This document shows, piece by piece, positions 27,901 through 33,900 of a stretch of DNA of 64,000 nucleotides. Where the stretch lies: the NCBI GenBank assembly GCA_965113315.1, contig OZ220368.1. One strand, written 5' to 3'. This DNA comes from Podarcis vaucheri. Taxonomy: Eukaryota. The notes beneath the pieces were generated by a model. That model did no database searches. It worked only from the letters and a program-made list of their open reading frames with translations, and was not told where the DNA came from. A program made the position numbers and the translations under genes. Every line of letters begins with the position of its first letter. The first letter of the stretch is position 1.

Positions 27901-30900
27901 TCTCTCTCTGACTTCTCCCAGCAGTAGATCGATATGGCTGGGACAATACCAAGGGTCTAGCCATGTACTGCTGAATCTGGCATTTCTGTGGAACCATAAA
28001 AATACCAGATTTCCTTCCTTCCCAGTGTTCTTAAAAAGAAATACTTGCAAAGGAGTAAGATGTGCTCTTAGAAATTCCCAGATCCAAGAAGTCTTGATAT
28101 TGCCACTGTGGCTGGAATGATGAACATTGTTTGGTCTGTATATGCCCTATCGCAGTACACATCACTCCTCACCTATATGATCCTATCTCATTTCCTTCCA
28201 ACAATTCCCAGTCCTACTGAACTTGGAAGCAGGGTGGGTTCAAAGAGAATTCTAAATCCCCAACAATGCCTGTAATAGCAGTAAGAACTGAAAATACAAA
28301 TGCACTGCTTCATTCAAGAAATGACATAGATACATCCACTCTAGAGTTGGAATCAAATCACAACAAGTGTAAAGGCCGACCCTATGACCTCTGCTGGGAG
28401 TCCCAGCCAACATGGAAGGGAGAATTTATATAACACATACACTTAAGGACACAAAAAGGTGACATTTAAGTACAGTGGTACCTTGGTTCTCAAACTTAAT
28501 CCATTCCAGAAGTCGGTTCAACTTCCAAAACCATTCAAAAACCAAGACCCGGTGTCAGGGAACTGCCATCGGAAGGACAGGAGGTGGAAGGGCTCACACA
28601 GGTTGGGAGAGACTCAGCAGCTGAAGAGGGAACCAGCAGGGGGAGAGGAGGGGCTCCGAGGAAAAGTGAGCAGGAGGGAGGACTCAGGGACACGTCCAGC
28701 GAAGACAGTGGGGAGGTTTCAGGACCTCCTATAGGGACACCCACTCCTCGCCGGAAACTGTCACGCCGAGAGTCCAGAAGACGCGTTTCCGTTAAGGAGC
28801 TTTTATGTTGGAAACGATTCCGAAAGCAACCACTGTCGGAATCTGCCAGCGACTGACGGAGCCATGCTTAAGGTGCTCCGTCACAGACAGAGGTTTGCGG
28901 ACTTGACCAAACTCTGAGGGACTAGGATTTTACGCACAAGCAGCTCATCATCCCATCACACCCGGCTTCCAATTGGCTACAGGAGCTTCCTGGACTCAAG
29001 CGGAAGCCGCGTCGGATGTTCAGCTTCCAAAAAACGTTCACAAACTGGAACACTTACTTCTGGGTCTGCAGCGTTCGGGAGCCAATTTGTTTGTCAGCTA
29101 AGCCATTCGTGAACCAAGGTATCACTGTAGTGTCTAACCATATGTTCTAATTCCAGCAAGCACCTTAAAAACTGAGACCCTTTCCAATCTACTGACTTTG
29201 CTCTCTCACCTCCTTCTCCGGCAAACACCGCTTCCATCAATTCCTGATGGCTTCGATAACTGTGTAGATACTATTTGACAGTGTACAGTCCCCATCAGCA
29301 GCATAAGGCACAATGGTCCAATAATTTCACTTGCACTCACAACTGGCATCATGTAGTACAACACCATTGCTATGACTGAAGAAAAAAAATGTATGTAAGT
29401 TGTCTGCCAGGCAAACCTTTGTTTTAGTAATACAACAACACCTCTTTGTTGCTGGGGGCCATAATCAAGTGAATACTACTACTACTACTACTACTACTAA
29501 TAATAATAATAATAATTTATATACCACCCATCTAACTGGGTTGAAGATTTGGAAGACTGGTGACTATCTACAGGGAGCTCTCTCACACATCCAAAGCCAG
29601 CACTTAGCAGGGTATCTCCCCCCACCGCAGTTGATGCAAAAGGGGGCCAGTTGATGCAAAAGGGGGCCAACTCTCACACCTGAACTTGCTCATTTTGGCA
29701 GAGCACACAACAGATAACACGCTGCTGCTAAAGGGATGGTTTCATCCTTCAAGGGGGGAAACTTCCTTTACTAGCTTCTCTCTAGCCAACTAAACATGAA
29801 TGCTTCTGCAAGGCAAAGCAGTGACTACTTTTCAAGTGGGAATGGGCAGCACAGATACTTGCATACAGGGGAAGTCCCTAACTCACCGAAGGTTAGCTGG
29901 TCATAATGTGGTTTCTATAGGGGACTTCCGGGGTGGCGCCTCTGGTGATGGCGGACTCCCTCTGAACTGGAGGGACAAGCTCCGCAAGAAACGGGTCTTT
30001 CCCGCTGCGGCGTAGCAGGGACCCTTCTGAAAATCACAGGCGGATGAAGCCTGTGACCGTGGGACTCGGTGGGCACCTTTAGCGCCCCCCCAACCCACTA
30101 AGGAACCCAGAAACGGGCTCCGAAGTGAAGAGGAAGTGGCGCTGTGCTGTGAGTTGACTGCTTTTTCTGCGGAGCGAAGCCGCATAGCCGTTGCCGGAGA
30201 GCGCTGCCTTTTTCCTGGGACAATTTGGCATTGAAATAACCAACCATGAGTACTGGAACGCTAAATAACTGGATTTCAAACAAGTATTGGCGAAATAAAA
30301 GGAACTTGGACTCTTGTAGTTATAACAAAGCAAAGACAAAATAAACTAGAGCCTTAAAAATCACTTTTAAAGGATCGTCTTTCACCATTCAAAACTGCGG
30401 AACCCCCCTTCGGAAGCAGGAAAAGAAGGGGGATTGTTACTGAGTTGTTTAAACCTGCGGAAACAAAGTCAAAGCAAAGTATCTTTCCACCGTCCTGACC
30501 CTGGAGCGGGGTGTCAGATTTGGTGTATGAAGCTCATTGACCAGAAATAAATGCTTTGACAGATAGTCAAAAGGAGGGAAACATTGTGATTCTATTGTTT
30601 CCTTTCGTTGTTTTTTTTTAAAGGACAAATATGGACAGAATATCTTTAAAGAAGAAACTTTGTTGCTATTGTGCTTAAGGAAAAGAACAATCAGAAGTTT
30701 TCCCCCCTAGAGGGGAACTATGAAATTGTAACTAAATCCTGGGAACTGGCAGCTGTTTACTGATTACAACTGTGGGAAAGAGTTCGGTGACCTTGCAGGA
30801 CAATGCCTTCAGAAGCACTGTTGGATGCTTTCTGTAACATAAGTGCCCTATTGGACCAGTTAAGCCAGAAGATGGATTTTATGATAAAAGCTGCTAGTGC

Positions 30901-33900
30901 CTTTGATCAGGCAGTGGAAAATTATATGGAGCCCATTCAGGAACCGAAACAGGAGTGTGTCATGACAGAACAACAGAAAGAGGAGGACCCTGCTGAATCT
31001 GGGATGCCAGGGACGAAGGGACTCTCAGCCCAGCAGGAAAGTGAGCTTTTGGATTTGGCTAATGAACTCGGAAAGAACCAGACTTGGAAAGATAAAGTTT
31101 GGACTGAACTGGAAATGGGGGGTTGGATTGACCACCCTATGCAGGGATGTTTGGACTTTCCGAGTCTGGAAATGGGTCGTCAGAGGTTTGGAGTTGTTGG
31201 GACTTCCAATTTTGGAGGGAATTTGAAATATGCTCTAAAACATCATATGGAGCTCAGTTTGGGCTATGAGAAAGGGGCTGATTTGTTGAAAAGGGTCAAA
31301 AACACTACAAAGCCAGAGTTCCCGCGAGTGAAAGGAAAATATGAAGAAGAGCTGCGAAAGGGACATGAAAGAGATTTGAAGGCCTTGGATATTAGGGCAC
31401 CAGGTTAATGTGCCAGACTAAAGGGAAACAGAAAGGACTGACAACCCCGGGACCGGGGGGGAGGGGACGCTGGAAGAAGTTTGGATTGTTTTTATTCTAT
31501 TGTATTTTCTTTTTTGTATTATTATTATTAGAAATGTCTGATGAATGTTGGGAAAATGCTGAAATGAAAGTACTTGGCTCTTGTTAAAATGTTTAAAGAA
31601 TATGGTAAAAAGGTAATGGTTATGAGAAGTTGGTAAAAAAGATTTAAGTTTTAAGCTTTAAGATTATTTTCATAAGATAAAACGAGAATAGAGTAAGGTA
31701 ATGTAATGATTAAATATTATGAATCATGGATTAAAGCTTTAAGCATCAAGGATTTTTATAAGATAGGATGATAATAGAGTAAGGTAAAGTAATGATAGAA
31801 TATTATGAACTTTGAAAAGGATTTGCTGTGACAATTATTAATCAAGATACAAGAGATGGGAGGAGGAGGAGGTCGTGGAAAGAAGGTAATGGAAATTGGA
31901 GAATTTGAAAATATGGTTTTATTTTTGTTTTTTTTCTTATGTTTTCGGTTTTTTTCTTTTTTGTAATGTCTTTTTTGTGTATTTAAAAAAAAATTCTTCT
32001 GTCTCAATAAATATCATAAAAAACATAATGTGGTTTCTATATTATACCTCTAATGTGGCCTGTTCTCCCAACTTCTTAACTTCTACAGTGGTGCCTCGCA
32101 AGACGAAAAGAATCCGTTCTGTGATTCTCTTCGTCTAGCGTTTTTTTTGTCTTGCGAAGCAAGCCCATTGACGGATTAGCGGATTAGCGCTATTAGCAGC
32201 TTATCGGATCAGCTGATAAGTGTCTTAGTGGCTTAGAAAAAGGGGGGAAATAAAAAAAAACCAGCAGGAACTCGCAAGACATTGTCGTCTTGCGAAGCAA
32301 GCCCATAGGAAATTCGTTTGCGAAGCACCTCCAAAACGGAAAACTCTTTCGTCTAGCAAGTTTTCCGTCTTGCGAGGCATTCGTCTTGCGGGGCACCACT
32401 GTAGTTGTTTCTGAAATGTAGGGTATGATAGCAGATCTTGTAAATCTGTAAGATCATTTCCTAACAAAATGGGAGTAATTACCTGATATAATCCTAATTT
32501 TTCTTGAATCATTTGCAATGTCCATATAGGAACTTTATATGTGAAATCACATCCTATACTCTTAGGTATACCACAAAACATCTATTAATATATCTTACCA
32601 CAGGCTGTACAAATTGTGTAGCAATTAAAATTTAATCATAGCCAGTTCTAACATATATGCATTCACATGGCACATAATATAACAAGCTTATATTCTCAAT
32701 TAAGTCTCAAACAAACAGCACACAGCTTTGGAATTGTTTAATGGAAAAGTAAATACCTGACAACATGCTCTCCACAAAAATGTTTACTTAAACCTTTAAT
32801 CTAGCTGGGATAAGCACTCTGAAGCATTACTATCAGTGGAATCCCTGAATGGAGTTGAGTCTGGTACAAAGACAATATTTAGGAAAAAGACTCCCAACTA
32901 AATAAAGATTCCTTCTAATTCATAATTCCCACCATGGCTGGTGTATTATTAAGACGGATAATTTACAACAAAATTATTTGCATGACTTTTCTCTCACTTT
33001 GAAAAGAACTGGATAAATGATGAAAATCAGGTAACAATGTGTTTATCAAGTGCTGTTGCAGTCCACACAACAAAGCTTGTGTTCTGCGATCATAAGGTTA
33101 CTCCATGACCAGCTTTGATCTTTCCTCCTCATTGGATCAAAGTCCATTTAAAGCTGGTCAGTGATGGCAAAGAGGAAAGTGAAAGGAAACAGAAAATGCA
33201 AATAGAAGGGAAATGATATGAAGGAGAGATAGAAATGAGGAGAGTGTTGCAAAGCAAGCTCAAGAGTGAGCAGACAAGAATCCTAGACTGCTATTTCTAC
33301 CAGGTCAAGTCTGTGAAGATGAGCTACAGGGACAGATTCTCTCTCAAAATCACTTCTTTTCCAAGATGTTAAGGAGCAAATGCACCACCAAGCTGCAAAA
33401 GTGAAGAATGATTTACGACTGATTCCTGACTTCTTGATTTTTTGCTTGCAAAAGTCTTCCTCCAACTATTTGCCTGGAGCAAGTCTGTTAAATTTGATGG
33501 ATCAAATTGATTACACCATCCTAAAATAGGTCATCTTGGTTTTCTCTTCAAGCTACTCTAACATAATCTCAATCTTTACTCACCTTGTAGGAGGTAGAGC
33601 GCTAGCAGCCATGTAAAAATACGCCTGGAAGTTACTTGTATCCACCACTGGCTAAAAAGGGGAAAGAAAAGAACCCGCACAAGCCCTTTTCCTGTCAGAG
33701 ATGTCCAAGGGATTTCAGGTTTAGCTTTGGCAAATGTGGAACCTAGAAAGCATACATGAAAAACACAGCTAGTTTATCTGGGAATTAAGGGGAAATCCAT
33801 TTGACTTTTTCCCGCTCTTACTCAGTCCAAGACTCCCTTTAAAATTGTGGATGTAGGAAAATATTTGCAAAACTTCATGGCCGCTCAGGACTAGTTCTTA

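Follow-up and report, generated by a model that had tools for sequence, protein, structure and literature searches.

We analysed a 64-kb window (64,000 nucleotides) from contig OZ220368.1 of the lizard Podarcis vaucheri, which contains a retroposon at positions 29902-32041 with a single intact open reading frame (ORF). Judged by homology, this retroposon is of the HAL1 (ORF1-only) type and derives from a lizard clade-1 L1 by internal deletion; its orphan ORF is an eroded L1 ORF1p. The element is very probably a half-L1 that arose by internal deletion, that is likely transcribed from an L1 promoter and copied in trans by an L1 ORF2p, and whose own protein is predicted to act through a retained coiled coil.

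Relatedness to L1 extends from one end of the element to the other. L283, an L1 of the same genome, is 82% alike to the window copy over the first 334 nt, is collinear with it over ~900 nt and also has the 3' end in common. Copies of a sister family, family C, match L283 in the 5' untranslated region (UTR), ORF1, the ORF2 tail and the 3' UTR, all in order. The family-C protein aligns with the L1 ORF1 P0015 at 32% identity (E 4e-31), and the window protein does so with E 1e-5; direct BLAST of the window protein against the sister L1 ORF1 gave no significant match, a gap that was bridged by family C. In a profile–profile comparison, the derived proteins match L1 ORF1 with a probability of 98.7% over 196 columns, and the modelled L1 ORF1 resembles human ORF1p structures (2ykp, E 6e-8). 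A midpoint-rooted tree of 29 proteins places 13 of 13 derived proteins on one side of a 100/100, long branch, beside P0015 and L283. L141, an intact L1 with reverse transcriptase (RT) and endonuclease, is 68% alike at the head and weakly so at the tail; the first 13 L1s chosen by RT score, which belong to other clades, have just the first 9 nt in common with the element. Two 5' motifs, ACTTCCGG (29924-29931) and GATGGCGG (29947-29954), had been described as ETS-like and YY1-like; both are present, and they are better read as the 5' terminus that the available text of PMC5381506 gives for lizard clade-1 L1s.

Database searches add little to this. The window ORF has no Pfam match at E ≤ 10, which is uninformative because the Pfam Transposase_22 model matches no L1 ORF1 anywhere in this genome; searching the derived proteins against Pfam, PDB sequences and Atlas likewise gave no useful match. 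That the window protein itself lacks a Pfam, PDB or Atlas match could be taken to favour a processed pseudogene or a captured cellular gene, a reading to which we give next to no credence, since hundreds of copies have L1 ends and the ORF is collinear with L1 ORF1p. The choice left by the initial annotation between a fast-evolving ORF1 derivative and captured cargo thus falls to the former on account of the L1 ORF1p homology. Two Podarcis muralis TRIM39-like RING proteins (P0020 and P0021) have 47-49% identity to L1 ORF1 over 66-73% of its length and may represent a TRIM–ORF1 fusion or an annotation artefact. The family has also seeded 'hypothetical protein' annotations (P0001).

The element reads on the plus strand. 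It is bounded by a perfect 18-nt direct repeat, the target-site duplication (TSD), at 29902-29919 and 32024-32041, which occurs just twice within the window. The L1-derived 5' UTR (29920-30802), a putative internal promoter by its likeness to L283, forms a leader of 883 nt that starts with the clade-1 terminus and carries a private 65-nt deletion; its first 400 nt are CpG-rich (observed/expected 0.67-0.96 across 29901-30300 versus 0.27 for the whole window). The intact ORF of 201 residues (30803-31408), taken from the ORF list and compared as protein and as profile, would begin with a retained coiled-coil segment (residues 1-42; 30803-30928) and ends in a C-terminal peptide with a PG-stop end (31370-31408), which sequence comparison shows to be conserved and formed at the ORF1/ORF2 deletion junction. 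It is followed by a non-coding remnant of the last L1 ORF2 codons (31407-31494), detected by DNA and tblastn comparison with a score reached by 0 of 1000 shuffles, and by an L1-derived, AT-rich 3' UTR (31495-32005; GC 25-28% in the 3' region; 65% to L283 over 31750-31998) with a tandem duplication of 86 nt that the youngest subfamily carries. The polyadenylation signal and short A tail (32006-32023) comprise AATAAA at 32006-32011 and six A at 32018-32023. The initial list of an 18-bp duplication, 5' motifs, a CpG-rich head, a leader of ~880 nt, a 201-residue ORF, an AT-rich 3' region, AATAAA and a short A tail is therefore correct in every item. So is the antisense intronic position: it is flanked by two exons (29257-29409 and 33585-33743), both on the minus strand, of a gene with a PHTF1/2 N-terminal domain, which by synteny is probably PHTF1 and not PHTF2. 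A very high-copy repeat with inverted arms starts 43 nt past the element (32084-32400).

The internal deletions can be placed on the parental protein. Measured against L283 ORF1, residues 1-51, 208-245 and 289-305 and the tail are missing from the derived protein, that is, 51 N-terminal residues together with part of the coil, 38 residues or half of the RNA-recognition motif (RRM), and 17 residues of the C-terminal domain (CTD). On the L1 ORF1 model, the two inner deletions would take an RRM strand and helix (208-245) and a CTD strand (289-305). A further heptad is lost in families A and B. The ORF stops at the point where the last codons of ORF2 are joined on and read out of frame. With L1 ORF2 as the tblastn query, the last 27-35 codons alone were found in family C, and the window copy gave no match at E ≤ 1. 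The element thus has neither an intact ORF2 nor the endonuclease and RT of an autonomous L1, and the reported absence of these motifs holds as regards coding capacity, although the ORF2 scrap had been overlooked. A splice-donor-like motif at 30244-30252 (~+328 of the 5' UTR) persists in 75 of 101 loci of family A and in 32 of 33 L1 loci; the window copy has a variant form, and likeness to the sister L1 stops at the motif. Spliced inserts, considered on account of this motif, were rejected, as GT-AG ends occur at 0 of the 23 listed deletion junctions.

The element belongs to a large set of families. An 18-nt 5' motif has 356 exact occurrences in the genome (control, 0), indicating at least 356 5' ends, which is at odds with a single-copy processed pseudogene. 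The element head is present in all of the first 30 motif matches and an ORF within 1.5 kb in 21 of them. All 40 scored candidates of 4,984 in the DNA search are 85-100% alike to the element, and 150 scored candidates of 3,381 in the protein search are 69-100% alike. A whole-library search returned sister proteins at 27-30% identity (P0003 and P0005), both with families in the same genome and with a similar layout of 1.8-2.4 kb. Family-C proteins are 34-37% identical, and those of the B group 24-31% identical, to the window protein; nearly all sister-family proteins have the same short peptide ahead of the stop. The open frame is retained in all sister lineages at these protein identities (24-37%). 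Lineages of the family differ by up to 2.3 substitutions per site in the ORF, and the window copy is 2.9% from its nearest fetched relative. By these distances the family is old, several deep lineages persist side by side, and the youth originally ascribed to the family applies to the window copy alone.

Copies carry A tails, 5' truncations and TSDs. Of 61 copies examined, 46 yielded a TSD (mean 17.4 nt), as did 10 of 20 L1s (mean 17.2 nt). Both prefer target sites with a pyrimidine followed by A-rich sequence; family A is looser, with T at −2 in 20 of 46 sites versus 9 of 10 for the sister L1. The target of the window copy had been noted as non-canonical, and it is indeed a relaxed site, as is usual for this family. 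Multiple copies, L1 ends and TSDs together bear out the proposed HAL1-like, RT-less family with an L1 promoter inserted by target-primed reverse transcription.

Several individual copies deserve mention. In L137:263-480, L081 and L079, the first 19-145 nt are joined to the 3' part, L137 having its own TSD; both of the ORF-less short derivatives that were tested occur once each. L278 has an in-frame internal deletion that leaves an ORF of 109 residues with both ends. A family-B element lies within an L283-type L1 (L327:3554-5448, reverse-strand numbering), and near-identical family-B copies are repeated close to contig ends (G000 C1, C10, C25 and C17), likely through segmental or subtelomeric duplication. 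A cluster of many L1 and family matches on a 41-Mb contig (G000:C41) suggests a repeat-rich chromosome.

We then asked how the ORF has evolved. Forty of the 356 motif matches were fetched (18 picked for a visible ORF, 22 not), and an 81-copy set was compiled by removing eight partial, deleted or ORF-less copies and one twin and adding 20 stop-free protein matches. Selection counts were taken among extant copies and compared with a kappa-4 neutral model. The ORF is broken in 15 of the 30 best DNA matches and in 19 of the 31 copies that were found by the motif and span the whole ORF region, and the breaks are private changes or fall at CpG and homopolymer hot spots. Variants present in at least four copies have a nonsynonymous/synonymous (N/S) count of 147/89, giving an omega of 0.66 against the neutral model (p 0.002). 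From the N to the C terminus, regional omega is 0.63, 0.88, 0.81, 0.47 and 0.48, with residues 141-178 at 0.47 (p 0.008); families B and C together give 0.77, and L1 ORF1 controls from the same genome 0.19-0.23. Private variants have N/S 184/46. This exceeds the neutral 2.4-3.1, in part owing to saturation at synonymous sites, and the model-based figure is thus the safer one. Among 74 intact ORFs, pairs up to 40% apart give an omega of 0.58-0.78 and more distant pairs one of 0.83-0.93. Where an indel is shared between copies, its length is divisible by three in four of five cases in the ORF versus 13 of 74 in the UTRs (p 0.007; 51 full-length copies). Internal branches total 3.0 substitutions per site, or ~1,835 substitutions, on which ~79 stops would be expected and 0 are common to a lineage; this figure is indicative, as the tree tips were chosen intact. 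A stop in both L008 and L009 might have marked a broken source that propagated, but the two are not nearest relatives: the pair is 6.0% apart, versus 3.5-3.8% to others, so that recurrence is likelier.

By these counts, inserted copies decay and source lineages are under weak purifying selection. A neutral ORF1 relic, open by chance, would agree with the breakage of half or more of the copies, but is very improbable given in-frame shared indels, breaks that are private or at hot spots, and the lack of any lineage-wide stop where some 79 are expected (with the caveat just given). The scenario in which most copies are broken and evolve neutrally, raised at the outset as an objection, therefore fails on the source lineages, even though at least half of the inserted copies carry a broken ORF.

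Because selection acts on source lineages and copies decay once inserted, a benefit in cis is indicated, and the protein offers a candidate basis for it. With the heptad register set by eye on the window protein, a/d positions are hydrophobic in 153 of 176 cases versus 95 of 416 at other positions among 16 related representatives, and the register is kept in 16 of 16 at ~25% identity. The confident part of the predicted structure is limited to residues 4-42 (predicted local distance difference test (pLDDT) 73-88); most of the protein is left unmodelled (pLDDT 46). We propose that a Pol II transcript would be made from the inherited L1 promoter and the eroded ORF1 translated, and that the first five to six heptads may associate with L1 ORF1p coils, drawing their own mRNA into L1 particles. 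The A-tailed RNA would then be captured in trans by the ORF2p of another L1 and inserted by target-primed reverse transcription, consistent with L1-sized TSDs and with intact L1s in the genome. Association with L1 ORF1p through the coil is the likeliest predicted role for the protein, and we put it forward tentatively: the coil is kept and the RNA-binding folds are lost, which favours it over translation alone or a new homo-oligomeric function, and the drawing of own mRNA into L1 particles would account for cis selection on source copies only. Multimerisation with the helper's protein is a published guess for HAL1 and HeT-A (available text of PMC5786205), and distinct human ORF1p coils are described as forming heterotrimers upon co-expression in the accessible part of PMC10588031.

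It is rather unlikely that translation alone matters, the open frame holding the RNA on ribosomes, stable against nonsense-mediated decay and near nascent ORF2p, with the peptide almost irrelevant. Such a role would explain why stops and frameshifts are not fixed despite an omega of ~0.8-0.9 in mid-protein and between families, and why the protein is mostly unmodelled with RRM and CTD gutted; it sits poorly with an omega below 1 overall and lowest in residues 141-178, with the invariant heptad register and with the conserved C-terminal peptide. Homo-oligomerisation serving a new job for the element (anti-silencing or localisation), independent of L1 ORF1p, is improbable. Its coil pattern is conserved despite divergence from L1 coils, 13 of 16 representatives are net acidic versus +9 for the parent ORF1p, and the conserved C terminus is new, but no fold or family lends support, and a diffusible product would aid all copies and so weaken cis selection. 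A narrower version of the coil-association proposal, which we think unlikely, is that N-terminal heptads leaving the ribosome co-assemble with L1 ORF1p coils while the remainder is a spacer under loose constraint and termination is slowed at the PG-stop end; the mRNA would thereby be towed into L1 particles and take ORF2p. Such a tether would be a protein-based counterpart to Alu ribosome docking, and the half-L1 would need the coil of ORF1p and not its RNA-binding domains.

Several observations count against coil association and its premises. The element's coil has diverged far from the coils of present-day L1s and, taken by itself, has an omega of 0.63 with p 0.06; constraint is weak overall (0.66), weaker in residues 43-140 (0.81-0.88), and the between-family values of 0.83-0.93 are near saturation. 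Broken copies make up 34 of the 81, the discovery of families B and C relied on a protein search, which is biased toward open frames, and translation of the eroded ORF1 is something we infer from sequence. In the available text of PMC5605252, a chimera with a mouse N terminus and a human coil formed no heterodimer with human ORF1p. The looser target sites of family A also make the sister L1 no more than a candidate helper.

Candidate helpers are nonetheless present. ORF2 is broken in six of six L283-type L1s examined, and is at least 1243 residues long in 12 of 15 L141-type (sister-lineage) copies, whose ORF1 has 117 scored matches at 95-100% likeness. The direct parent lineage thus looks decayed and the sister lineage intact and young; the genome contains further intact L1 clades. 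In single-cell data from a related species, reads of 85% likeness span the element, the plus strand being 3-7 times higher over much of the ORF and the ratio reversed over the AT-rich 3' part. The neighbouring repeat is ~10 times deeper, and intronic read-through is a possible source of the element reads. No empty site was seen among the joints shown in these reads.

HAL1 is an L1 derivative that encodes ORF1p only and has several origins in mammals (available text of PMC5753468; Smit 1999 and Bao and Jurka 2010, as cited there and in PMC5786205). No paper on a squamate HAL1 was among those listed by the literature searches; the family may be catalogued in Repbase or Dfam, which were not searched. 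The lizard elements show that HAL1-type parasites have also arisen outside mammals and that lacertid genomes carry many of them. The idea published for why ORF1 persists in half-L1s is multimerisation with the helper's protein. The present family is a natural deletion series in which the RNA-binding domains were cut early and frame and coil register were kept over ~2 substitutions per site; it separates a need for the coil, for translation and for RNA binding, testable with intact L1s of the same genome.

The lizard element resembles mammalian HAL1 in being non-autonomous, in encoding ORF1p only, and in its L1 5' UTR, L1 3' end, A tail and TSD. It differs in its independent origin in a lacertid from a clade-1 L1, its nearest relatives being lacertid clade-1 L1 ORF1s (in a comparison without mammalian HAL1 sequences), and in the coexistence of several deep lineages. 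In the available part of PMC7586669, the ORF1p of human HAL1b is depicted with coil, RRM and CTD, whereas the lizard protein has 38- and 17-residue deletions in the latter two and has lost the N-terminal region; because RRM and CTD are incomplete, we file the family as a variant that works like HAL1 and not as a typical member. With lizard clade-1 L1s (as described in the available text of PMC5381506) it shares the 5' terminus motif, long 5' UTR, ORF1 homology, ORF2 tail scrap, 3' UTR and TSD length, but lacks endonuclease and RT, and its ORF1 has an omega of ~0.66 versus ~0.2 in same-genome L1s. HeT-A and Ag-Sponge, ORF1-present bipartite non-autonomous LINEs in the account of PMC5786205 that is accessible, also have one ORF1-type protein thought to multimerise with that of the helper; they belong to the Jockey and CR1 clades, whereas the lizard element lacks telomere targeting and its protein is truncated. 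The human ORF1p fragments that suppress L1 in trans (PMC5605252, available text) likewise bear a coil and lack working RNA-binding domains. A host-beneficial, dominant-negative role of this kind was considered for the lizard protein and rejected, since inserted copies decay and the N terminus required for suppression is missing. The human fragments stem from stops in dead copies and need their N terminus, whereas the lizard fragment has its N terminus deleted and is inherited by amplifying families.

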